Source of the DNA: an uncultured Gemmatimonadaceae bacterium
Lineage (GTDB): Bacteria > Gemmatimonadota > Gemmatimonadetes > Gemmatimonadales > GWC2-71-9
Direction of reading: 5' to 3'
Assembly (NCBI GenBank): GCA_964578865.1
Contig: CAZOES010000007.1
Coordinates: forward strand, 16,169-80,168
Length of the DNA: 64,000 bases
This document shows positions 1 through 12,860 of this stretch, piece after piece (within the stretch, counting starts at the first letter, position 1; each line of letters begins with the position of its first letter). The position numbers and the translations under genes were made by a program. Under the pieces are notes generated by a model that worked only from the letters and a program-made list of their open reading frames with translations, did not search any database and was not told where the DNA came from.

Positions 1-1082
1 TCGCCCGGCAGACTCAACGCCAGCACCATCGAGAGCCCCCCTCGCAATCCGCCCCAGCTCAGCACCGCTTGCCAGGCCGGCGGAACCCGATTGGCCCCCC
101 GGGCAACCAGGGCGGACATGCCAAAGACCACGACTGCTCTCCCGAGGAGGACAGCCAGGAAGGCCGAGAGAATCAGCTGCCAGTTGCGGAACAGGTCCGG
201 CAGCCGGACCTCGAAACCAATCAGCAGGAAGATGATGGAGTTGAGCGCGAAGGCGACGTACTCCCAGAAGGTCTCCACCGCGACCCGGGTGGTGGGGGTC
301 ATACCGGTGCGGGCCCCATAGTTGCCGCAGACCATGCCGGCCACCACGGTGGCAATGACACCTGAGCCATGGAGGTGCTCGGCACCGGCAAAGGCCCCGT
401 AGGCCGCGATGGTTGTCAGGGTGATTTCAATCATCGGGTCGTCAATCCGCTGGATCACGGTGGAGATCACCAGCCCGACGACAAAGCCGATGCCGGTACC
501 GAGCCCGACGACTTGCAGGAACTCGAGGACCACGGACGTGGCGGAGAAAGACCCGCCGCCGGCAATCGCGAGAATCAGGGTGAAGAAGACGATCGACGTG
601 CCGTCATTAAGGAGACTCTCGCCTTCCAGCAACGCCGCCAGCCGGTGAGGCGCGCCCAGGGTGCGGAACAGCCCGACTACCGCGATCGGATCGGTGGCCG
701 CCACCAGGGCACCGAATACCAGGGCGTGTTGCCAGATGACACCCTGGTCCAGCGGAAGCAGCGCCGCTACCGCCACCAGGATCGCCGCTGTCAGCAGAAT
801 GCCCAGCACGACGCCGGGAACTGCCAGCGCGAGAATCACCGATTGATCCCGCCGGACCTCCCGGAAGTTGAGATGAAAGGCGGCTTCGAACAGCAAGCCC
901 GGCAGAAAAACCACGAACAACAATTCCTGGGTGAGATGAGGCGGTTCGAAGGCATGCAGCTGTCCCAGGAAGAGCCCGGCGAGCACCAGCGCTACGGTGT
1001 ACGGCAGGCGGAGCCGGCGGGCTACGAGGGCGACAGCCGTCGCCACGATGAAGAGCAGGATCAGGGCGGATTCGGTAACCAT
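1..1082 (-). CDS. Na+/H+ antiporter, CPA1 (NhaP-like); 3' end cut by window edge
   Basis: Not in the ORF track because it runs off the edge. My translation of the minus strand from ATG at 1082-1080 gives MVTESALILLFIVATAVALVARRLRLPYTVALVLAGLFLG... It is a continuous multi-TM protein with ATDPIAV and GESLLNDG motifs typical of the Na+/H+ exchanger family. The + ORF 369-1214 is a D/G/R/H-rich shadow. Confidence 0.8.
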   Translation of the reverse strand, partial: MVTESALILLFIVATAVALVARRLRLPYTVALVLAGLFLGQLHAFEPPHLTQELLFVVFLPGLLFEAAFHLNFREVRRDQSVILALAVPGVVLGILLTAAILVAVAALLPLDQGVIWQHALVFGALVAATDPIAVVGLFRTLGAPHRLAALLEGESLLNDGTSIVFFTLILAIAGGGSFSATSVVLEFLQVVGLGTGIGFVVGLVISTVIQRIDDPMIEITLTTIAAYGAFAGAEHLHGSGVIATVVAGMVCGNYGARTGMTPTTRVAVETFWEYVAFALNSIIFLLIGFEVRLPDLFRNWQLILSAFLAVLLGRAVVVFGMSALVARGANRVPPAWQAVLSWGGLRGGLSMVLALSLPG

Positions 1083-1094
1083 GGTCAGGGCCGT

Positions 1095-2729
1095 TCAGCG
1101 ATGGCTGTCGGCGGGAGGCTCCACCCGGAAGGCCGGAGCTCGATATTCCCTGGGAAGATGATCGGCGGGGAGGGTCACCTGGTTGCCATCACGCAAGGCT
1201 CGATAGTGTGGTGACATGATTTCCACCCCGGCTTCGTTGAAGCGGTCCTGGATCGCCTGGTGCAACTCTGAGTAGGTCCGGGCCATATCGGCGGGCCGAT
1301 CGGTGTAGGCATTGAGCTGATAGCTCACGTAGAAGTCGTCCAGACTGGTCTGCAGCACGAAGGGAGCCGGTTCAGCCTTTATATGCACGGTGGCGGTGGC
1401 GGCCGAGATCAGCAAGGCGTGCACCTGGCGCCAGGGTGCATCGTAGCCGATGGTCACGGTGGTGTGGAGGATCAGGCCCCGGCTGGCGGCCTGGCTGCTG
1501 AAGTTGATCACCTGGCTGGACAGTACCGATCCGTTAGGCACCGTGATCTCGACATTCTTGATGGTCCGGATTCGGGTCACCAGCATGGTCCGCTCCACCA
1601 CGTCGCCTACGGTCTCTCCGATCTGCACCCGGTCGCCTACCCGGAAGGCGTTGGTGTAGGTCAGGACGACCCCGGCGATAATATTCCCTACTGCCCCGGA
1701 GGAGCCCAGGGAGAACAGCACGCCGACGAAAAGCGAGACGCCTTTGAACGCATCGGAGCCCGCGCCCGGCAAGTAGGGGCACAACACTACCGCGGCAAAG
1801 GCGATTACCAGGAAGCGGACGATGTTGAAGGTTGGGTCGGCCCAGTCCCGGTGGAATCCATCGAAACTCAAGGCCCCGCTGCCGATAGCCCGAAAGACCA
1901 GCTGGATCACTTTGAGGAGATAGCGGGTCACCAGTACGATGACCGCGATGAAGAAGATCTTGGGCAGGTAGGCCAGGAACCCGGCACCGGCGGCCCGGAG
2001 CGGCGTTACGACGTAACCCACGATCTGCCCGGACAGCGGTGCAGTCCAGGGGAAGAAGCTCAGCACCAGCGGCACGTAGAGATATAGCAAGGCAACGGTC
2101 GCCAGCACTCGGAGGGCTCGGGCCACACCGGTGAGACCTTCGCTCAACCGCTCGGCCGACAGCAGTTCCAGCCGCTTGACCCGAAGCGGACCGAGGTGGG
2201 CGGGTGAAAGCAGCCGGTAGATCCGGACAAACAAGCGCGCGAGACCGAACAGCAGACCGAGCAGCACCAGGGTTGTGGCAAGCGCCTTGGCGGCATCCAG
2301 CGACAGGGCCGTGAGGCCGCGGGCGTGGGATCGGGCCGAGACGACCTGTTGAATTCGGGACGCCCACGCAGTGGCGAGCGCCTGGCGGGGCACCCCCACC
2401 GGCGCGGCGTCGGCGTCGAGTATGGTCATCAGGACCACATCGCCCACCAGCAACTCGGTGCGCTGCTCCAGCTCACTGACCGTGATCGAATCGCGGCCCG
2501 AGGCCAGCCTGGCCGCGATCCCCGGTAACCTGGTCTGGATCGACCCGGCTCGTTCGACCGGACCGAAAGGACCCAGCCGGCCATAGAGGGTGAAGAGTGT
2601 GTCGTTGTCGAAGACCACCGGGGCGCCGCTGGGCGCCGGGGTGGAATCCGGGGGTTCCTGACCGCCGAGGAGGGAAGGCAGCAATCCGAGAAGCAGGCCG
2701 AACCGTGCGGCCGAGAGACGGATGCTCAT
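1095..2729 (-). CDS. Mechanosensitive ion channel, MscS family, with N-terminal signal/periplasmic extension
   Basis: ORF 1095-2807. MscS core ...NIIAGVVLTYTNAFRVGDRVQIGETVGDVVERTMLVTRIRTIKNVEITVPNGSVL... Start moved to ATG 2729 (MSIRLSAARFGLLLGLLPSLLGG, signal-like). Confidence 0.85.
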   Translation of the reverse strand: MSIRLSAARFGLLLGLLPSLLGGQEPPDSTPAPSGAPVVFDNDTLFTLYGRLGPFGPVERAGSIQTRLPGIAARLASGRDSITVSELEQRTELLVGDVVLMTILDADAAPVGVPRQALATAWASRIQQVVSARSHARGLTALSLDAAKALATTLVLLGLLFGLARLFVRIYRLLSPAHLGPLRVKRLELLSAERLSEGLTGVARALRVLATVALLYLYVPLVLSFFPWTAPLSGQIVGYVVTPLRAAGAGFLAYLPKIFFIAVIVLVTRYLLKVIQLVFRAIGSGALSFDGFHRDWADPTFNIVRFLVIAFAAVVLCPYLPGAGSDAFKGVSLFVGVLFSLGSSGAVGNIIAGVVLTYTNAFRVGDRVQIGETVGDVVERTMLVTRIRTIKNVEITVPNGSVLSSQVINFSSQAASRGLILHTTVTIGYDAPWRQVHALLISAATATVHIKAEPAPFVLQTSLDDFYVSYQLNAYTDRPADMARTYSELHQAIQDRFNEAGVEIMSPHYRALRDGNQVTLPADHLPREYRAPAFRVEPPADSHR

Positions 2730-2829
2730 GGGATCTCGCGAGAAGGGTGGCCAGCGATCGCCCGGGGTTCGACACCAGCGTGAGAGCCGGTGCCTCCTGC
2801 AGCGCAATCACCAGAACCGGGAGTTTTCC

Positions 2830-3717: not shown

Positions 3718-4400
3718 CCCGGGACGACACCATTCGGGTACGCCAGACCCGGCCGGCCGATTTCCCCGGCATCATTGCCCTGTGCGCCGCCGTCTACCCC
3801 GAGTCACCGGCGTGGAGTGAAGCCCAGCTGGCCGGCCACGGGTCTCGATTCCCGGAAGGCCAGCTGGTCGCCGTGGCCGGGCCGGAGGAACAGGTGGTCG
3901 GGATGGCCGCGAGTCTGATCGTCCGGTGGGATGACTACGCCATCAGCGGATCCTGGCGCCAGTTCACCGAGCAGGGGACCTTCGCCAACCACGATCCGGA
4001 GCGGGGCCGGACCCTTTATGGAGCCGAAGTGATGGTTCATCCTCGGCGCCAGGGGCAGGGCATCGGTTCCCGGCTGTATCAGGGTCGCGAAGCGCTGGTG
4101 CGGCGCCTGGGACTGTTGCGGATCCGGGCCGGGGCTCGCCTGCGGGGCTACCATGAGGTGGCCGACCGAATCAGCCCGACGGAGTACGTCCACGCGGTGG
4201 TCAATGGGACCCGGACCGATCCCACGCTCACCTTCCAGCTGCACCGCGGTTTCCGGGTTCTGGCGGTGGTGTCCGGTTACCTGATTCACGATCCCGAGAG
4301 CCGGGGCTATGCCGCGGTCATCGAATGGCTCAATCCCGAGGTTGCCACGCCGGCGGATCTGGCCGCATCCAGGCTGCCCTTCAGTCGGGCCGAGGGTTGA
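3714..4400 (+). CDS. GNAT family N-acetyltransferase
   Basis: RRQGQGIGSRLY acetyl-CoA binding motif. ATGA overlap with the upstream C-N hydrolase at 3714-3717 indicates an operon. Confidence 0.75.
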   Translation: MTRDDTIRVRQTRPADFPGIIALCAAVYPESPAWSEAQLAGHGSRFPEGQLVAVAGPEEQVVGMAASLIVRWDDYAISGSWRQFTEQGTFANHDPERGRTLYGAEVMVHPRRQGQGIGSRLYQGREALVRRLGLLRIRAGARLRGYHEVADRISPTEYVHAVVNGTRTDPTLTFQLHRGFRVLAVVSGYLIHDPESRGYAAVIEWLNPEVATPADLAASRLPFSRAEG

Positions 4401-4419
4401 TTCTCCGGTCCTGCGCTAT

Positions 4420-4434
4420 TACTTTGATATCAAT
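4420..4434 (+). promoter_or_regulatory. Recurrent motif copy A: TACTTTGATATCAAT (core TTGATATCAA is a perfect palindrome)
   Basis: Read directly. It lies 26 nt upstream of ATG 4461 in an AT-rich island. The same 15-mer recurs at 12550-12564 and, with one substitution on the minus strand, at 6703-6717. Confidence 0.45.
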
Positions 4435-4460
4435 ATATATATCAAATTAAAGGGGGGCGC

Positions 4461-5078
4461 ATGCGAACAATCGCCGTCGTGTTGGCTGGAGCGCTGCTGG
4501 CCGGCTGTCATCACACTCCGGTGCAAACCGGTCCCACTCCCGGGCCGAACGACCTCGCGGCCCGGAACGATTCGCTGGCCCGGCACCGGGCCGATTCGCT
4601 GGCCCAGCTGCGCCGAGCCGAGACGGAGCGGTTGGCTCGAGCCGAAGCGGAACGGCTGGCCCGGGAGGCGGCTGAGCGGCGCGCCCGGCAGCTCGCCGGA
4701 CTGACCGATACGCTGACCCGTCGAACTCATTTCGATTTCGATCAGGCGGTGATTCGTTCGGAGGATCGCCCCCTGCTGGAGCGGAAGCTGGCCATCCTGC
4801 GAGCCAATCCCTGGCTCAAGTTGACCGTAGCGGGCCACGCCGATGCCCGCGGCTCTGACGAATACAATCTCGTGCTCGGCACCCGTCGGGCCGCCGCGGT
4901 GCGCGATTTCCTGGTTGCCCGGGGGGTTTCCGGCGAGCAGCTCCGGATCGTGTCCTACGGGGAGGAGCGGCCATTGGCCTGGGGGAATAACGAGCCCGAC
5001 TGGGCCCTGAACCGGCGAGACGAGTACTCACCGGGGGCGGCGCTGGACTCGCTGGTGGCGCCGGTTGAGGGGCGGTAG
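4461..5078 (+). CDS. OmpA-family / Pal-like peptidoglycan-associated lipoprotein with coiled-coil spacer
   Basis: Lipobox LLAGC. OmpA_C core: HFDFDQAVIRSEDRPLLERKLAILRANPWLKLTVAGHADARGSDEYNLVLGTRRAAAVRDFLVARGV. RBS AGGGGGG lies before the ATG. Confidence 0.85.
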   Translation: MRTIAVVLAGALLAGCHHTPVQTGPTPGPNDLAARNDSLARHRADSLAQLRRAETERLARAEAERLAREAAERRARQLAGLTDTLTRRTHFDFDQAVIRSEDRPLLERKLAILRANPWLKLTVAGHADARGSDEYNLVLGTRRAAAVRDFLVARGVSGEQLRIVSYGEERPLAWGNNEPDWALNRRDEYSPGAALDSLVAPVEGR

Positions 5079-5081
5079 GGG

Positions 5082-6161
5082 ATGCCGTTTCCCCAATACC
5101 AGATACTGGGCAACAGTCTCACCCAATGGATCCAGGCCCTCGTAGTCGGTGCCGGGGTGCTGGCCGGGCTCTGGCTGGTCCGGCGGCTGCTGGCGGCTCG
5201 GCTGGGAGCCTTGGCCCGGCGGACCACCAACGTCTGGGATGACCTGCTGGTTTTCCTGATCCAACGGACCCGGACCGTTACCCTGGGGGTGGTGGCGCTG
5301 TGGCCCGCGCTGGGGCTCTTGAGTTTGCCGCCTGCGGCGATCCAGGTCGCCCGGATCATCACGGTGCTGGTGGGAGCGTTGCAGCTTGCCCTCTGGGGCA
5401 ACCTGCTCATCACCTCCATCCTGGAGGCCAAGGTCGCCCGGCTGCGTCAGGACGATCCCTCCTCCGCGACGACGCTCACCGGCATGACCATTCTGGTACG
5501 GGGTGTCCTCTGGGTCGTGCTCTTGCTGCTGGCGCTCGACAACCTGGGTGTGAATATCAGCGCCCTGGTGGCCGGTCTGGGCATCGGCGGTGTCGCCATC
5601 GCCCTGGCGATCCAGAATATCCTGGGCGATCTGTTCGCCTCCCTCTCGATTGTGCTCGACAAGCCCTTTGTCGTGGGCGATTTCATCGTAGTCGGCGACA
5701 TGATGGGGACGGTGGAGCGGATCGGCCTGAAGACCACCCGGCTGCGCAGCCTGTCCGGTGAACAGCTGGCGTTTTCCAATGCCGATCTCCTGGGCAGCCG
5801 TATCCGCAATTACAAGCGGATGTCGGAGCGCCGGGTGGTGTTCACCGTCGGAGTCACCTATCAGACTCCGGCCGACCTGCTGGGCCGGATCGGGATGATC
5901 CTGCGTACCGTGGTCAGCGCCGAAGATGGGGTGCGATTCGACCGGGCCCACCTGCGCAGCTTCGACGACTCGGCTATCACCTTCGAGGTGGTGTACTACG
6001 TGCTCGATGCCGACTACAACCGGTACATGGACATCCAGCAGAAGATCAATCTGGCGATTTACCGGCGGTTTGAGGCTGACGGCATCGAGTTCGCCTATCC
6101 GACCCAGACGGTCTATCTCCACCCGGCGGGCCAGCGGGAGCCGGGGCCCCAGCTGGCGTGA
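5082..6161 (+). CDS. Mechanosensitive ion channel, MscS family
   Basis: ...GIGGVAIALAIQNILGDLFASLSIVLDKPFVVGDFIVVGDMMGTVERIGLKTTRLRSLSGEQLAFSNADL... Starts 3 nt after the Pal-like stop codon. Confidence 0.85.
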   Translation: MPFPQYQILGNSLTQWIQALVVGAGVLAGLWLVRRLLAARLGALARRTTNVWDDLLVFLIQRTRTVTLGVVALWPALGLLSLPPAAIQVARIITVLVGALQLALWGNLLITSILEAKVARLRQDDPSSATTLTGMTILVRGVLWVVLLLLALDNLGVNISALVAGLGIGGVAIALAIQNILGDLFASLSIVLDKPFVVGDFIVVGDMMGTVERIGLKTTRLRSLSGEQLAFSNADLLGSRIRNYKRMSERRVVFTVGVTYQTPADLLGRIGMILRTVVSAEDGVRFDRAHLRSFDDSAITFEVVYYVLDADYNRYMDIQQKINLAIYRRFEADGIEFAYPTQTVYLHPAGQREPGPQLA

Positions 6162-6162
6162 C

Positions 6163-6672
6163 CTAGTCGTCCGAGAAGAAGAAGCGCACTTCGATGTCGC
6201 TGGCCTCCATCATCGCGACCAGCCGGTCGATCGACTTGAGGATCTTGCGCTGCTCGGTCTGGGACAACTGGGCCAGACCGTGGAGCAGCCGTCCCTGGGC
6301 CGGCTGGGGGGCCCGGTCGGCTAACTCGCGACCTTTGGGTGTGAGGTCGATTTCGACGAAGCGGCGGTCTTCCCGGGGCCGGACCCGGCGTACCAGCCCC
6401 CGCTTTTCCAGCCGGTCCACCAGGATCGAGAGCGTACTCGGCTGCACCGCCAGAGCCTCGGCCAGAGCACTGGTGGCCAATGCGCCTTCGCGCTTGAGGG
6501 TCTTGAGGGCCCAGAGTTGCGGACCGGTCAAGCCGAAGCTCTTGAAGACCTCCTGGGAGTAGAGTTCGACCGCCCGCACGATCCGGCGCAGCCCGTTGAC
6601 GATGTCGCGGGTGGCGGATGAGGGGGGCGACTGACGATTGGAGCGGGAAGAACGTGCGAGAGTGGCGGCCAT
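6163..6672 (-). CDS. MarR family transcriptional regulator
   Basis: Winged-helix MarR signature LTGPQLWALKTLKREGALATSALAEALAVQPSTLSILVDRLEKRGLVRRVRPREDRRFVEIDLTPKG. Confidence 0.85.
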   Translation of the reverse strand: MAATLARSSRSNRQSPPSSATRDIVNGLRRIVRAVELYSQEVFKSFGLTGPQLWALKTLKREGALATSALAEALAVQPSTLSILVDRLEKRGLVRRVRPREDRRFVEIDLTPKGRELADRAPQPAQGRLLHGLAQLSQTEQRKILKSIDRLVAMMEASDIEVRFFFSDD

Positions 6673-6702
6673 GGAGTTGGCTCAAGGGAGCCCGGATAGT
6701 AG

Positions 6703-6717
6703 ATTGATGTCAAAGTA
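6703..6717 (-). promoter_or_regulatory. Recurrent motif copy C: TACTTTGACATCAAT (minus-strand reading)
   Basis: The + strand reads ATTGATGTCAAAGTA. It lies 30 nt upstream of the MarR ATG (6672) in the MarR/ClC divergent intergenic region. It matches copies A and B at 14 of 15 positions. Confidence 0.45.
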
Positions 6718-6776
6718 GTCTGTCCGCGGCGGGGGTCAATCGGTCCCCCCGGCGCAGTCCTCTTCCTGGCTTCCCT

Positions 6777-8672
6777 TTGCAGCTACTGCGAACCCTTCGC
6801 TGGCAGCTCCACCGGCTGGCAGTGCAGGCGAGACGTACCACGTACGGCCCGGTCAATGCCGCCCAGGGTTTCTGGGCCGACCTGGTCGACTGGTTCAACG
6901 GTCTCGAACTCAGCGAGAACGCCATCCTGCTGGGATTTGCCGCCGTGATTGGGCTGGGCTCCGCGGTGGGGGTGGTCGGTTTCTACAAGCTGATCGACCT
7001 GGCGCACCAGGCGTTCTTCTCCTGGCCCGAGTCGGTTTTGCCGGAATTAGGGCGACTGGCCTATCGCCCGGTGATTACCGGTGCCGGGGCGGTGGCGGCC
7101 TGGGCTCTGATGCGCCGGTTCGGCCGGGGGCACGACGGCCTCAACATCCCGGACGTACAGCTGGCGGTGGTACGGCGACAGGGCCAGTTGCCGACGGTCC
7201 CGGCACTGGCTCGCACTGCCGCCAGCGCGGTCACCATCGGCAGCGGTGGTTCGGCCGGCAGTGAAGGACCGGTCGCGGTCTTCGGGGCGCTGATTGGCTC
7301 CCGGCTGGGCAGCCTGTTCCGCTTCAGCGGAAGTCGAACCGGGATCCTGGTGGGTGCCGGTGCGGCGGCCGGAATCTCGGCCGCGTTCAATGCCCCGCTG
7401 GCCGGTGCGTTCTTCGCGCTGGAGGAGATCCTCGGATCGTTCAGTACCGCGGCGTTCGCTCCGGTGGTAGTAAGCAGCGTCCTGGCGGCGGTGGTGTCCC
7501 GGGGGGTCTTTGGCAATCATCCCGTCTTTCCGGTTCCGCTGGAGCTCGGGTATCGGTTGACCCGGGAAGTGGTGCTGTTCTACCCGCTGCTCGGTCTGCT
7601 GGCCGGTCTGGTCTCAGTGTTCTTCGTCCGCTGCTACTTCGGAGTGGACGGCTGGAGCCGGCGGACCCGGATCCCGCCGGGCTGGCTCGCTGCCGGAGGC
7701 GGGGCAGTGGTGGGCGGTCTCGCGTTTCTCTCCGGTGGGCTGCTGGTGGGATCAGGGCATCTGGCGATCCCGCTCGACGGTTTTGCCCAATCGGCCTGGT
7801 ACTTCGTGGCGTTGCTGGCGATCGGGAAGATTGTGGCCACCTCGATCACCCTCAACACCGGTGGATCGGGGGGGCTGTTCACCCCGTCGCTGTTTGTGGG
7901 CGCGTCCACCGGCAGCGCCTTTGGTCTGCTGCTGGTGGGTCTGTTCCCCGGCCTCCACCTGAGTGCCGAGCCGTACGCGCTGGTGGGGATGGGATCGGTG
8001 ATTGCCGCGGCTACCAATGCGCCGATGACCGGCATCTTCATGGTATGGGAGATGACCGGGAACTCGACGATCATGTTGCCCCTGATGCTGGCGGTGGTTG
8101 TCAGCCATGCCGTGGCCCGTTGGCTGGAAAGGGATTCGCTCTACAGCGGCTGGCTTCGCCGCCGGGGCGAGCACATCGAGCACGGTGAAGACCGGGATGT
8201 GCTCAACGGACTCCGGGTCGAAGATGCGTTCGACCGCAACCCGGCGGTGATCTCCCAATACGCCTTTGCGCCTGAGTTCCTGGTGCATCTCGGTGCCGGC
8301 AGTCAGGACGTGTTTCCGGTGATCGATGCCGAGCGCCGCCTGGTAGGTGTTCTCACGGTGGCCGACCTCGCTCGGGTCGGTCGGGATTATCGGGACCTGC
8401 ATCAACAAATCACGGCCGACGTGGCAGCGCAGCCGAGCGAGACCCTGGCTCCGGAAGATTCCCTGCTCGAGGCTATGCGGCGGATGGGTGCCCGCGGGGC
8501 GGCGGCGCTGCCGGTGGTCCATCGGGACACCGGCCGGCTGGTCGGGCTGCTGAGCCGCAGTGATGTGGTGGGGCTCTACTCCCGGATTCTGGCCGGCGCG
8601 CCGGAGGAGGTGGGCCCGCCCGCTGGAGCAGTGACTTCAGCAGACGGAGGGCTGGCAACGGGGAACAAGTGA
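6777..8672 (+). CDS. ClC-type voltage-gated chloride channel/antiporter with C-terminal CBS pair
   Basis: GSGGSAGSEGP and GGLFTPSLFVGA selectivity-filter-like motifs. C-terminal CBS-like repeats (VFPVIDAERRLVGVLTVADL; ALPVVHRDTGRLVGLLSRSDV). The start is TTG 6777, or alternatively GTG 6822. Confidence 0.85.
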   Translation: MQLLRTLRWQLHRLAVQARRTTYGPVNAAQGFWADLVDWFNGLELSENAILLGFAAVIGLGSAVGVVGFYKLIDLAHQAFFSWPESVLPELGRLAYRPVITGAGAVAAWALMRRFGRGHDGLNIPDVQLAVVRRQGQLPTVPALARTAASAVTIGSGGSAGSEGPVAVFGALIGSRLGSLFRFSGSRTGILVGAGAAAGISAAFNAPLAGAFFALEEILGSFSTAAFAPVVVSSVLAAVVSRGVFGNHPVFPVPLELGYRLTREVVLFYPLLGLLAGLVSVFFVRCYFGVDGWSRRTRIPPGWLAAGGGAVVGGLAFLSGGLLVGSGHLAIPLDGFAQSAWYFVALLAIGKIVATSITLNTGGSGGLFTPSLFVGASTGSAFGLLLVGLFPGLHLSAEPYALVGMGSVIAAATNAPMTGIFMVWEMTGNSTIMLPLMLAVVVSHAVARWLERDSLYSGWLRRRGEHIEHGEDRDVLNGLRVEDAFDRNPAVISQYAFAPEFLVHLGAGSQDVFPVIDAERRLVGVLTVADLARVGRDYRDLHQQITADVAAQPSETLAPEDSLLEAMRRMGARGAAALPVVHRDTGRLVGLLSRSDVVGLYSRILAGAPEEVGPPAGAVTSADGGLATGNK

Positions 8673-9802
8673 AGCTGGTCGTACTCGACCGGCGGGAGTC
8701 GGAGGATCAGTCCGGGGAGCAGGGTGATGAGCGTGGTGTAAATGACCAGGCCGCCGATCAGGGCCGGAGGTACTTCGGGCCGACCGCGGAGAATATCAGC
8801 GATCACCAGAGTGAATACCAGGGTCGGCAGCAACGCTACTCCAACCCGGAGGCTGTTCCGGGGCGGCTCACGCAGCACCACCCATCGGTGCAGAGCGATC
8901 TCGCCAAGCCGCAGGCCGGCGCAGCCCAGCAACAGACCCAGACCCAGGAGGATGGCCGTACGGTCCAGCTCGGCAGGTGTGATGCCTTGACCTGCCTTGA
9001 AGAAGTAGAACGGTACGAAGAACGACGCGAAGGCCTCGACCGCTCCCAGCATCCGTTCCGAGGACATGGCCGGTAAGCGGGACCGGAACTGTCGCGCCGC
9101 CAGTCCAACGATGAAGGCACCGACCAGGTAGTAGACCCCGAGCCGGCGGGTTACCGAGGCACAGACTACCGCCACCATCAGGAGAAAGGCGAACTCGGAG
9201 CGGGGGGCGGCCGGGGCGATCGCGGCCGCGAACCAGCGAAAGAGTGGCGGAAGAATCACCACCATCGCGGACAAGAGCCCGACACTGACACCGAGCTGAC
9301 GGGCCGAAGTGGACTGCAGGGTCAGAAACATCACGACCAGCGCTAACAACTCAGAGGCGATCGCCTTGGACTTGGTCCAGCGCTTTTCACTGTCCGAGAG
9401 CCCGAAGAGATCGAGGGAGTCGAGAATAAACCCGGTGGACGGGGTGAGCAGCGCCAGCCCGATCAGCGCGGCAGTGCGGATCGGAAAGTGGGCCAGCCAG
9501 ATCACCAGCAGGGTGATCAGGGCCAGACTCGCCAGCCAGATGACCAGGTGCTGGATCAGGACCAGCAGGTCGGGACGCAGCTCCTCGATCTCGACGTCGA
9601 GCCCGGCGAAGAGGAACAGCGCCACGATGCCGAAGGTGGCCAGCAGCGCGATGGTCTGATCGTGGTCGAACAGACCCAGCCAGCCGGCCGCCGCGCCGAG
9701 GATCAGGCTGGTGACCGCACCCGGCAACCGGTACCGCTGGAGAAAACGCGGCACCACAAAGAGGACGAAGAGGAGCAACACATAGGCGAGGTCATTGGAC
9801 AC
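8576..9802 (-). CDS. Cation:proton antiporter (CPA2 / Kef-like membrane domain)
   Basis: ORF 8576-9973. About 12 hydrophobic segments, Na+/H+ exchanger-like. Start moved to GTG 9802 (VSNDLAYVLLLFVLFVVPRFLQ), because the longer N-terminus is basic and non-membrane and runs into the otsA-otsB fusion gene's upstream region. Confidence 0.75.
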   Translation of the reverse strand: MSNDLAYVLLLFVLFVVPRFLQRYRLPGAVTSLILGAAAGWLGLFDHDQTIALLATFGIVALFLFAGLDVEIEELRPDLLVLIQHLVIWLASLALITLLVIWLAHFPIRTAALIGLALLTPSTGFILDSLDLFGLSDSEKRWTKSKAIASELLALVVMFLTLQSTSARQLGVSVGLLSAMVVILPPLFRWFAAAIAPAAPRSEFAFLLMVAVVCASVTRRLGVYYLVGAFIVGLAARQFRSRLPAMSSERMLGAVEAFASFFVPFYFFKAGQGITPAELDRTAILLGLGLLLGCAGLRLGEIALHRWVVLREPPRNSLRVGVALLPTLVFTLVIADILRGRPEVPPALIGGLVIYTTLITLLPGLILRLPPVEYDQLHLFPVASPPSAEVTAPAGGPTSSGAPARIRE

Positions 9803-9872
9803 GCCTGAATTCTTGTTCGCTCGAGCGATTCGAGCAACCCTGATTGGGCCCTTCAACCGAGGAGGCGACACG

Positions 9873-12062
9873 ATGGCAGTCCTCGTTGCATCCAACCGCC
9901 TGCCGGTCACCATCCGGCGGGGCCCCGAGGGCATCTCCCTCTCCGACAGCATCGGTGGCGTGGCCACCGGCATGTTGAGCGTGCAGGATGGTGAGCCTGG
10001 CTGCTGGATCGGTTGGCCCGGTCCGACCGACCTGATATCGGAAGTCGACCGGAATGACCTCGATCTGCGCTTGGAACAGCGCCGGTTGGTGCCGGTACAC
10101 CTCTCCCGGGAGGAAGTCCGGGGGTTTTACCAGGGGTACTCCAATGGGGTAATCTGGCCGCTCTTCCATTACCTGGTGCAGCAGGTTCCGTTGGAGCCGC
10201 GCCACTGGGAGGAGTACGACCAGGTCAATCAACGTTTCGCGGAAACGATATCGGAGCGATGGACCCCGGGGGACGAAGTCTGGATTCACGATTATCAGCT
10301 GTTACGGGTGCCCTTCCATCTCCGCCGTCTGCGCCCTGAGGCGAGGATCGGGCTATTCCTGCATATCCCTTTTCCGGTCTTTGAAGTATTCCGGATCCTG
10401 CCGACCCGGCGGTTGCTCCTGGAAGGGATGCTGGGCGCCGATTTGCTGGGGTTTCACACCAAGTCCTACGCCGGCTACTTCACTCAGGCCGTCGCGCAGC
10501 TAGTGCCCGAGGCCCGGGTTGCTCCGGGTGAGATCGAATTCCAGGGGCGGCGCACCAGGGTGGGCGACTTCCCGATGGGAATCGATGTCGCCCGATTCGA
10601 GACCCCGGCCAGAGCCGGTGACTTCGGGAATTTGCGGAACAGTCTCGGCGGCGGCTCGATCAAGACCCTGGTCGGCATCGATCGGCTCGACTATACCAAG
10701 GGCATCCCCCGCCGGTTGCTGGCCTTTCGCCGCCTGCTGCTGAACCACCCGGAGATGCGTGAGAAAGTCACCCTGATTCAGGTGGCGGTGCCTTCCCGCA
10801 CCGGGGTGAAAGCCTACCGGAAGTTCCGTCGACAAGTTGACGCGATGGTCGGTCGGATCAACGGGCTTTTCGGGACCCCCGGTTGGACACCGGTGAGATA
10901 TCTGTACCGCAGCTTCACCCAGCCGGAATTGATCGGGCTGTTTCGGGAGACCGACGCCATGGTGGTGGCGCCGGTGCGCGATGGCATGAACCTCGTGGCC
11001 AAGGAATTCGTTGCCAGCCGGGTCGATGGCGATGGGGTCCTGGTGCTCAGCGAGTTTGCCGGTGCGGCCGACGACATGCCGGAGGCCTTGATCGTCAACC
11101 CTTACGATATCGAGGGCACCGCCGAAGCGTATTTCCAGGCGCTGACCATGATGCGGCACGAGCGACGAGCCCGGATGCGAGCCCTGCGCCAGGGGGTCCG
11201 GTCCAGACCGGTAAGCCAATGGGCTAAGTCCTTCCTGGATGAGTTGCGGGCAATCAGCCGGGAAACCGAGCCGGTCCCCCGGAGTGAGTCCCAGGGTACC
11301 CTGAACCAGGTGCTCGATCGGGTGCGGCAGTCTGCGTCGCTGCTGTTGTTGCTGGATTACGACGGAACCCTGGTCCCCTTTGCCGACCATCCCGACGAGG
11401 CCGTGCCGGACCCTGACCTCCTGTCCGTGCTCGCGAAACTTTCCAACCGGCCTGAGGTGGAGCTGCATCTGGTGAGCGGCCGGCAGCGAGAGCACTTGGA
11501 GGATTGGTTCGGGCACCTCCCGGTCGGATTGCACGCCGAACACGGCACCTGGTCCAGGCCAGCCGGAACTCCCCACTGGCAGCAGCACCAACTGGCCCGT
11601 CCGGTTCCCTACGATGAGTTGCTCGGTCTGTTGAAGTCCTACACCGACCGGACGCCCGGTGCCTTGATCGAACGGAAGTCATCCGGTTTGACCTGGCACT
11701 TCCGGCTGGCCGAGCCGGCGCTGGGATCTCGGAACGCGGAGAAGCTGATCGAGGAGGTGGAGCGGCGATTGGGACCGGAACAGGTGGGAGTTCTGCGAGG
11801 CGATCGGGTGGTGGAGTTTCGTCCCAGCGGGATTCACAAGGGGTTGGTTGTGAGACGGCTGCAGAACTGCCGCGCGCCGCGTGAGCTCACCCTGGCGTTC
11901 GGCGATGATATGACCGACGAAGAAATGTTCGGGGCGCTGGGGGAGGAGGGACTCAGCATTCACGTGGGGCCCAATCCCAGCGCGGCGCAGCTGCGGTTAC
12001 GCGACGTGCCGGAGTGTCGGGCGTTGCTGCAGGCGATTGCCGATTCCAGATCAGTCGCGTGA
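9873..12062 (+). CDS. otsA: Bifunctional trehalose-6-phosphate synthase / phosphatase (OtsA-OtsB fusion)
   Basis: The N-terminal GT20 domain has MAVLVASNRLP, LFLHIPFP and NPYD. The C-terminal HAD phosphatase has LLLLDYDGTLVPF and GDDMTDEEMF. ATG 9873 is preceded by GGAGG (9861-9865). Confidence 0.85.
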   Translation: MAVLVASNRLPVTIRRGPEGISLSDSIGGVATGMLSVQDGEPGCWIGWPGPTDLISEVDRNDLDLRLEQRRLVPVHLSREEVRGFYQGYSNGVIWPLFHYLVQQVPLEPRHWEEYDQVNQRFAETISERWTPGDEVWIHDYQLLRVPFHLRRLRPEARIGLFLHIPFPVFEVFRILPTRRLLLEGMLGADLLGFHTKSYAGYFTQAVAQLVPEARVAPGEIEFQGRRTRVGDFPMGIDVARFETPARAGDFGNLRNSLGGGSIKTLVGIDRLDYTKGIPRRLLAFRRLLLNHPEMREKVTLIQVAVPSRTGVKAYRKFRRQVDAMVGRINGLFGTPGWTPVRYLYRSFTQPELIGLFRETDAMVVAPVRDGMNLVAKEFVASRVDGDGVLVLSEFAGAADDMPEALIVNPYDIEGTAEAYFQALTMMRHERRARMRALRQGVRSRPVSQWAKSFLDELRAISRETEPVPRSESQGTLNQVLDRVRQSASLLLLLDYDGTLVPFADHPDEAVPDPDLLSVLAKLSNRPEVELHLVSGRQREHLEDWFGHLPVGLHAEHGTWSRPAGTPHWQQHQLARPVPYDELLGLLKSYTDRTPGALIERKSSGLTWHFRLAEPALGSRNAEKLIEEVERRLGPEQVGVLRGDRVVEFRPSGIHKGLVVRRLQNCRAPRELTLAFGDDMTDEEMFGALGEEGLSIHVGPNPSAAQLRLRDVPECRALLQAIADSRSVA

Positions 12063-12500
12063 ACCTGACGGTGACCTTGCCAGGGCGGGGAGGAACCAGG
12101 GAACCAGGGCCACCAGGACCAGAATTACAAGCCCGGGTCGAGTTTCCCAGACCTTCAGGTCATCGATGACCCCCTTCCAGCCGCCTCCAAGGAGAGTACC
12201 CAGCCAGAGGGCGCGGAAGGCTGCACTCACGGCGAGCCAACAGAGGCTGAGTTTGATGAGTCCGACCCAGCTGGAAGTCGGCATGGCATCGGCCGACCAG
12301 AGGAGCGCCAGCAGGCCACCAGCTAATACAAATGCCACGCTTACGGCCAGCGCCGAGAAATCACCACCTCCAAGCACGAACGTCGCGCCCCGAGCCAGCG
12401 TGCCCAGGACGATGCCGATGCCGATGGGAAGCCAGGTGACCAATGCGGCGGTCAGGGGAAACGGTTCTCCGCCCAGCTGACTGGTGGTTCGAACGTGCAT
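12051..12500 (-). CDS. Hypothetical integral membrane protein (4-5 TM segments)
   Basis: The only coherent ORF here. Its composition is hydrophobic and Gly/Ala/Leu-rich, and no family is recognised. Its 3' end overlaps the convergent otsA-otsB fusion gene's 3' end by 12 nt. Confidence 0.5.
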   Translation of the reverse strand: MHVRTTSQLGGEPFPLTAALVTWLPIGIGIVLGTLARGATFVLGGGDFSALAVSVAFVLAGGLLALLWSADAMPTSSWVGLIKLSLCWLAVSAAFRALWLGTLLGGGWKGVIDDLKVWETRPGLVILVLVALVPWFLPALARSPSGSRD

Positions 12501-12549: not shown

Positions 12550-12564
12550 TACTTTGATATCAAT
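12550..12564 (+). promoter_or_regulatory. Recurrent motif copy B: TACTTTGATATCAAT
   Basis: Read directly. It lies 41 nt upstream of ATG 12606 in an AT-rich island and is identical to copy A. Confidence 0.45.
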
Positions 12565-12605
12565 GTAATGTCAAGCAACCGGGACGATAAAGGTCGGAGG
12601 TACCC

Positions 12606-12860
12606 ATGCCCCTCGAATTGGCAATCGGTGTGAGTGTCATGATGGTCGCGGCGTTTGCCGGCATCAGCTTGCTGGTGCGTACGTTACCGCCCAAGAAGAA
12701 GCCGGGGCTGCCCGAACCGGACGAGGTCCAACGGCGATTGGAGGAGGTCGATCAGTTGCGGCAGCGGGTGGTGGAGGTCGAGGAAAGACTGGATTTTGCG
12801 GAGCGCCTGTTGGCGGCCCACCGGGTGTCCGGTCAGATCCCCTCTACCAAGGCCGACTAA
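12606..12860 (+). CDS. Small membrane-anchored coiled-coil protein (hypothetical)
   Basis: GGAGG RBS at 12596-12600. One N-terminal TM segment (IGVSVMMVAAFAGISLLV) is followed by a charged helix, EVQRRLEEVDQLRQRVVEVEERLDFAERLL. Confidence 0.5.
   Translation: MPLELAIGVSVMMVAAFAGISLLVRTLPPKKKPGLPEPDEVQRRLEEVDQLRQRVVEVEERLDFAERLLAAHRVSGQIPSTKAD

Follow-up and report, generated by a model that had tools for sequence, protein, structure and literature searches.

Generic repressors of the MarR type (E. coli MarR, MexR, MepR, OhrR, SlyA) are winged-helix proteins that repress sterically, and the operators of the family are (pseudo)palindromes of 16-20 bp placed over the -35 and -10 elements of the regulator's own promoter and of neighbouring promoters. 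EctR (EctR1) of Methylomicrobium alcaliphilum is a MarR-type dimer that represses the ectoine synthesis genes; its operator consists of two 8-bp half-sites separated by a 2-bp gap and lies over the -10 box, and EctR also regulates its own gene (PMC5924519). In Vibrio, one MarR-type repressor, CosR, directly controls several loci for the synthesis and transport of compatible solutes, is encoded divergently from a transporter gene and does not autoregulate (bioRxiv 10.1101/845297). The locus analysed here lies in a window of 64,000 nucleotides (positions 16169-80168 of contig C7) from a 4.82-Mb metagenome-derived assembly of an uncultured soil member of the Gemmatimonadales (Gemmatimonadota), comprising 265 contigs at 63.9% GC and ~79% completeness. 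Bacteria of this phylum are abundant in soil and mostly uncultured; to our knowledge almost nothing is known of their transcriptional regulation, and a literature search for transcription-start or promoter studies of Gemmatimonadota found none. Judging from sequence, an 18-bp palindrome that recurs in this locus is likely to be the operator of the adjacent MarR-family repressor and to overlap the -10 boxes of the promoters that it precedes.

The original prediction had singled out a 15-nt motif, TACTTTGAYATCAAT, in three copies 26-41 nt ahead of start codons, and all three are found exactly as described, at 4420-4434 (+), 12550-12564 (+) and 6703-6717 (-), the minus-strand copy carrying the claimed T-to-C change as a C at the Y position. 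The measured distances to the ATG codons are 26 nt (4420), 41 nt (12550) and 30 nt (6703), and each of the three copies sits within an AT-rich intergenic island. Shuffling gave an expectation of 0.02 TACTTTGAYATCAAT matches in the window, in keeping with the claim that chance recurrence is very unlikely, and four matches were reached in 0 of 100 shuffles; the count is four because the 12550 site, being palindromic, also matches when read in reverse. That the core is palindromic was correctly seen, and the palindrome extends over 18 bp rather than the 10 bp originally assigned to it. The 15-mer covers the left side (5' two-thirds) of a longer inverted repeat, 18 bp in length, whose consensus is TAynTTGAT followed by ATCAAnrTA and in which two 8-bp half-sites flank a central TA.

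Two more copies, sites A and B, lie on the same contig ~3.5 kb and ~1 kb upstream of the window, and site A holds a perfect 16-bp palindrome, ATGTTGATATCAACAT. When the five sites are aligned on their dyad, both arms are conserved to position +/-9, and the outer TA of the arms is kept in 9-10 of 10 half-sites. An inverted repeat of 16-20 bp suits a MarR homodimer, and the 18-bp dyad found at all five sites has a symmetry that fits a dimeric winged-helix protein. Counted genome-wide, the 10-bp core TTGATATCAA occurs five times in the assembly, with four occurrences inside one 16-kb stretch of C7; the fifth occurrence, on contig C162, is in GC-rich, apparently coding sequence and scores low, and the MarR-proximal copy is the variant TTGATGTCAA. 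A symmetrised weight matrix built from the five C7 sites and scanned over the whole assembly gave these sites 29.5-39.2 bits, against 18.1 bits for the best position elsewhere in the 4.8 Mb; only the gap to the rest of the assembly is informative, because the matrix was trained on the same five sites. All five are intergenic and fall within 16 kb around one MarR gene, and the sequence that they share is limited to an element of 18-24 bp with unrelated flanks. A literature search with the TTGATATCAA 10-mer matched only unrelated primers and eukaryotic elements.

Table 1. Candidate operators, inferred promoter elements and genes of the locus (window positions, unless prefixed C7 for contig coordinates)
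Feature	Position	Strand	Support or remark
Operator site A (candidate)	C7:12655-12672		Window position -3513
Orphan Cys-rich membrane protein, 176 aa	C7:12670-13200	+	Upstream of window, follows site A
Amino-acid permease	C7:13316-15136	+	Upstream of window, after orphan gene
Operator site B (candidate)	C7:15174-15191		Window position -994
ABM-domain protein	C7:15349-15645	+	Upstream of window
NhaP/CPA1-type Na+/H+ antiporter, ~517 aa	C7:15697-about 17250	-	Covers window 1-1094, runs off window start
Second MscS	1095-2807	-	NhaP-type antiporter directly downstream
Inferred -35 TTGATT of OmpA/MscS promoter	4397-4402	+	17 nt upstream of TACTTT
Operator site 1 (candidate) TACTTTGATATCAATATA	4420-4437	+	39.0 bits; its 5' TACTTT is the inferred -10 of the OmpA-like/MscS promoter
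Auxiliary half-site ATCAAATTA	4441-4449	+	12.3 bits; offset 12 bp downstream from site 1 dyad
Target operon (putative)	4461-6161	+	Pfam, NCBIfam
Pal/OmpA-like lipoprotein	4461-5078	+	
MscS channel	5082-6161	+	
MarR-family regulator, 169 aa, proposed palindrome-binding protein	6163-6672	-	Pfam PF01047, 1.2e-13
Operator site 3 (candidate, autoregulatory) TACTTTGACATCAATCTA	6700-6717	-	29.5 bits; MarR/ClC divergent region
Inferred -35 TTGACC of MarR promoter	6734-6739	-	16 nt upstream of TACTTT
ClC channel with CBS domain, divergent from MarR	6777-8672	+	Pfam; possible second site 3 target
Na+/H+ exchanger	8576-9973	-	
Fused OtsA-OtsB	9795-12062	+	
149-aa membrane protein, possible divergent site 2 target	12051-12500	-	
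Operator site 2 (candidate) TACTTTGATATCAATGTA	12550-12567	+	37.7 bits; between 149-aa (-) and 84-aa (+) genes
84-aa TM/coiled-coil protein, putative target gene	12606-12860	+	Multi-copy family

The genes around these sites are given in Table 1. The site 2 gene does encode a small membrane coiled-coil protein, as had been proposed, of 84 aa with one TM helix and a coiled coil; it belongs to a large multi-copy family without a one-to-one orthologue in relatives, and most genomes of the genus have members of this family in tandem, with 3-6 genes to an array (e.g. G007:C16, G005:C115, G049:C1). The product of the gene that follows site A found no counterpart in Pfam or NCBIfam, and homologues of it are almost absent from the genus; its C-terminal segment is Cys-rich and zinc-ribbon-like (CGGCG...CPEC). 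At site 1, the inferred -35 hexamer shares bases with the TGA stop of the GNAT gene upstream, and the auxiliary half-site downstream of the dyad may allow binding of a second dimer; genome G012 carries full double sites at the same 12-bp offset. Two plus-strand ORFs near the start of the window (69-365 and 369-1214) were rejected as genes and are regarded as antisense shadows of the minus-strand antiporter, because their GC1 exceeds their GC3, unlike in genuine genes here.

The proposed palindrome-binding protein contains the MarR winged helix-turn-helix domain, matching PF12802 (1.7e-12) in addition to the family given in Table 1, and is matched by 43 MarR-family chains in the PDB, best by 4xrf (4.4e-14). 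It has a Ser/Arg-rich N-terminal extension of 40 residues. Its NCBIfam matches are all far below the cut-offs and do not include an EctR or CosR model, and its homologues are annotated generically as MarR or, at JGI, as 'organic hydroperoxide resistance regulator'. Relatives of the protein in metagenomes number in the hundreds, and those with a named source come almost entirely from Gemmatimonadota. By these matches the 169-aa protein is a generic MarR-domain protein. The locus departs from generic MarR systems in that neither an efflux pump nor an aromatic-catabolism gene lies near it, and in that its MarR is free of cysteine. With zero cysteines in 169 residues the protein is not an OhrR-type peroxide sensor, and redox sensing of the OhrR/MgrA type, which calls for a sensing cysteine, was rejected.

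Comparison with related genomes ties the palindrome to this regulator. An alignment of 14 orthologous loci of the same genus shows the palindrome in 13, placed 30-50 nt ahead of the MarR start and with no more than one mismatch in its core, and the flanks and spacers have diverged around it. The MarR orthologues fall into two groups, group I with 65-79% identity and group II with 53-57%. Group I genes belong to a conserved block in the order CN-hydrolase, GNAT, site, OmpA, MscS, MarR, site, ClC, antiporter, OtsAB, in which MarR is the sole transcription factor, and group II genes are always divergent from a metallophosphoesterase gene. The palindrome is present in the own promoters of both groups, taking the form TATATTGAYRTCAATACA in group II, where it is placed inside the -35/-10 spacer and the mRNA seems to be leaderless; the MarR gene is the only thing common to the two contexts. 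The 10-bp core proved too unspecific to serve as a genus-wide marker, with 1-4 matches even in genomes without the regulator, and was therefore replaced by the 18-mer TANNTTGATATCAANNTA, allowing at most one mismatch, in a survey of 39 genomes. Of the 13 genomes with a group I (close) orthologue, 10 carried this stringent marker, and of the 26 others none did (Fisher p = 4.5e-7, a value that may be inflated by shared ancestry if the close-orthologue genomes form one subclade), and the control pattern matched one genome. Conservation upstream of orthologues, an association that follows both paralogue groups, co-occurrence with the close orthologue and recurrence upstream of OmpA/MscS in relatives all support the reading, raised in the original prediction, of the element as the operator of the adjacent MarR protein.

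The presence of two paralogue groups raises the alternative that the palindrome is the operator of another regulator, either a group II paralogue or an unlinked factor, and that the adjacent MarR recognises something else. The own promoters of group II genes carry nearly the same palindrome, and at C28:33307-33379 of the present genome a weaker version, TGCATTGACATCAATACA, lies between an orthologue of the metallophosphoesterase gene and the ORF start MGRNASPKTDINAVV, of which the first 15 codons are present before the ORF runs off the contig end. The arrangement is that of group II, so a second MarR, belonging to that group and having almost the same operator, is probably present in the genome; cross-talk between the MarR paralogues is possible, and either of them, or both, may bind the five sites. 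That another regulator takes the place of the adjacent MarR is very improbable. Genomes that have group II alone (G003, G018, G011, G023) contain one core match each, that is, a single autoregulatory site, which implies that a regulon of several sites belongs to group I; such regulons, like the stringent 18-mer, occur only where group I is present. Moreover, the group I gene always has a site in its own promoter, which is hard to explain unless the group I protein binds there.

The original prediction had also offered a second reading, in which the motif is a lineage-specific promoter element. Part of this holds, since the 5' TACTTT is a likely -10 hexamer, and that part is compatible with an operator. 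Four of the five sites have TTGACC or TTGATT 16-17 nt ahead of the palindrome's left arm (TAnnTT), which reads TACTTT, TAGTTT or TATGTT among them. Most orthologous sites keep the same layout, TTGACn-N17-TAnnTT, and in group I orthologues TTGAC is held at a constant distance while the spacer sequence is not conserved. A scan for promoters of strict E. coli consensus accepted site A alone and none of the three window promoters; the -10 assignment therefore rests on the lineage-specific form TAnnTT from 7 tRNA promoters. In this genome, TAnnTT occurs at -24 to -12 upstream of 7 of 39 tRNA genes, at an expected chance match of 0.4% per gene (p = 1.4e-10), making it a likely local -10 form, and several of these promoters also show TTGnnn 16-18 nt further upstream. 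Apparent housekeeping promoters of the form TTGnnn-N16-18-TAnnTT are seen, for example, at the tRNA-Leu genes on C174 and C99 and the tRNA-Ser gene on C41. The local form, with its T at position 5, stands between E. coli TATAAT and Bacteroidota TAnnTTTG.

If TAnnTT is the local -10, the operator covers both -10 and +1, which is the classic layout for steric occlusion by a repressor. For the regulator itself, the palindrome stands 30 nt ahead of the MarR ATG, overlapping the -10 proposed there, an arrangement consistent with autoregulation. At site A the ATG follows 9 nt after the -10 box, so this mRNA would be leaderless or nearly so. Start codons stand 5-9 nt past the -10 box at site A (locus L001, C7:12655-12672) and at the group II loci L013, L015 and L014, which suggests that leaderless mRNAs are common in the genus. 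A convincing -35 was looked for on the plus strand of site 2 and none was found; the minus strand reads TTGACA-N17-TAACTA with a perfect TTGACA, and a possible promoter here, with the operator in its spacer, could serve the 149-aa gene. On the plus strand of site 3, TTGGCT is followed after 17 nt by TAGATT, formed by the other arm; control of ClC through this TTGGCT-N17-TAGATT promoter is proposed tentatively, because its -35 is not conserved in relatives.

We next consider whether the element might be a promoter part and nothing else, that is, a lineage-specific -10/start region of a strong or alternative-sigma promoter with no dedicated repressor. The placement of TACTTT at the proper distance from TTGACn and the status of TAnnTT as the apparent -10 form of this genome would both be accounted for, the original prediction noted a likeness to the Bacteroidota box TAnnTTTG, and Gemmatimonadota and Bacteroidota both belong to the FCB group. 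Bacteroidota sigma-A promoters combine a -7 TAnnTTTG with a -33 TTTG, and the TA..TT skeleton is common to both. The likeness ends there: in TACTTTGA the register differs (TAnnTTGA), and the upstream box is TTGACn (TTGACC or TTGATT, at 16-17 nt) and not a -33 TTTG, so that assignment to the Bacteroidota type was rejected. Nor would a promoter call for a dyad, whereas here the two arms mirror each other to position 9, and the tRNA promoters have TAnnTT without the TTGATATCAA core. The element is confined to the five sites and one weak site, near MarR genes, rather than spread across housekeeping genes; in group II loci the palindrome falls within the -35/-10 spacer and so is not the -10; and the stringent 18-mer is absent from the 26 congeneric genomes without the close orthologue. 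A promoter element alone is thus highly improbable.

A third alternative is that the copies arose by chance, or are what is left of a short dispersed repeat or of the end of a mobile element, and play no part in regulation. One could cite for it the low-complexity sequence that AT-rich intergenic islands of GC-rich genomes can share. The conservation data effectively refute it: orthologous positions keep their sites across species at 53-79% protein identity, and the sites hold their placement with respect to -35 boxes and start codons. Against it also stand the expectation of 0.02 matches, compared with the copies observed, and the end of sharing at the 18-24 bp element, whose unrelated flanks led us to reject a mobile-element or repeat origin.

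Returning to the palindrome as the operator of the adjacent MarR, we envisage that a MarR dimer would bind the 18 bp. At four of the five sites it would thereby cover the -10 (TAnnTT) together with the start point of a promoter of the sigma-70 type, TTGACn-N16/17-TAnnTT; because the operator overlaps -10 and start, binding would exclude RNA polymerase. Up to five promoter-operator modules within 16 kb, MarR's own included, would be repressed in this manner. Their predicted targets are MarR and perhaps ClC, the operon of the Pal/OmpA-like lipoprotein and MscS, the 84-aa membrane/coiled-coil protein and perhaps the 149-aa membrane protein, and, upstream of the window, the orphan Cys-rich protein followed by the amino-acid permease, and the ABM-domain protein. 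An ionic or osmotic cue, plausible from the nature of these targets, would relieve repression; that the signal is osmotic is a guess from gene content.

The sites of related genomes are informative about the extent of such a regulon. Sites stand upstream of the OmpA/MscS operon in G001, G021, G046, G012 and G022, the ABM gene is preceded by a site in G012, and a homologue of the 149-aa membrane protein adjoins one in G021. Other sites in relatives precede a cation-chloride cotransporter, a divergent pair of genes for an isoamylase (GlgX-like) and a 417-aa protein, an amidohydrolase and an ATP-grasp gene, and the isoamylase/417-aa pair has double sites in three genomes. At loci L036 (G019:C5:1439021) and L041 (G001:C16:40666), the two operators between the genes of this pair are spaced by 28 bp. 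The 417-aa protein is conserved and without a Pfam family; its gene in the present genome is on contig C173, and a high-scoring site sought for it in this assembly was not found. Orthologous counterparts of sites A and 2 were looked for in relatives and none were found. From these comparisons, the conserved targets appear to be MarR itself and the OmpA-like/MscS operon. By position, the sites precede genes suited to osmoadaptation, namely MscS/OmpA and perhaps ClC here, and the cotransporter and isoamylase in relatives.

We regard the locus as most likely an ordinary MarR regulon, with autoregulation and a theme of osmotic and ion homeostasis, whose mechanism would be textbook. A further-reaching reading, which we consider rather doubtful, is that the protein is a Gemmatimonadota-specific regulator of osmotic and ion homeostasis, an analogue of EctR and CosR, whose half-site TAynTT doubles as the lineage -10 TAnnTT. 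If this were true, one palindrome would amount to two back-to-back -10 boxes and hence to a compact, portable, bidirectional promoter-operator cassette, and such a cassette would explain the recruitment of species-specific genes (those at sites A and 2, and in relatives the cotransporter, isoamylase and amidohydrolase genes); several of the species-specific genes at sites appear leaderless. The locus offers a concrete and testable regulator-operator pair, a first one for an uncultured soil lineage, together with a first sketch of the lineage promoter as TTGACn-N17-TAnnTT with frequent leaderless starts. The small regulon predicted here would tie a mechanosensitive channel, an envelope lipoprotein and ion transporters to one another, joined in relatives by trehalose- and glycogen-related genes, and would bear on the survival of soil drying and rewetting.

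Among described systems, EctR appears to be the closest functional analogue of the window's MarR, by analogy of arrangement and function, the matches found for the protein being to generic MarR only. As predicted from sequence, the two share a MarR-family protein, an operator of two 8-bp half-sites with a 2-bp centre, overlap with the -10 box and a site at the regulator's own gene. They differ in phylum and in targets, which here are channels and transporters (MscS, OmpA-like, perhaps ClC), with trehalose- and glycogen-related genes in relatives, and do not include ect genes. Relative to CosR, the best-conserved site here is autoregulatory and the target sets differ, whereas the predicted use of a single MarR-type repressor for several osmoadaptation promoters, and the position of its gene divergent from a transporter gene, are features that the two systems have in common.
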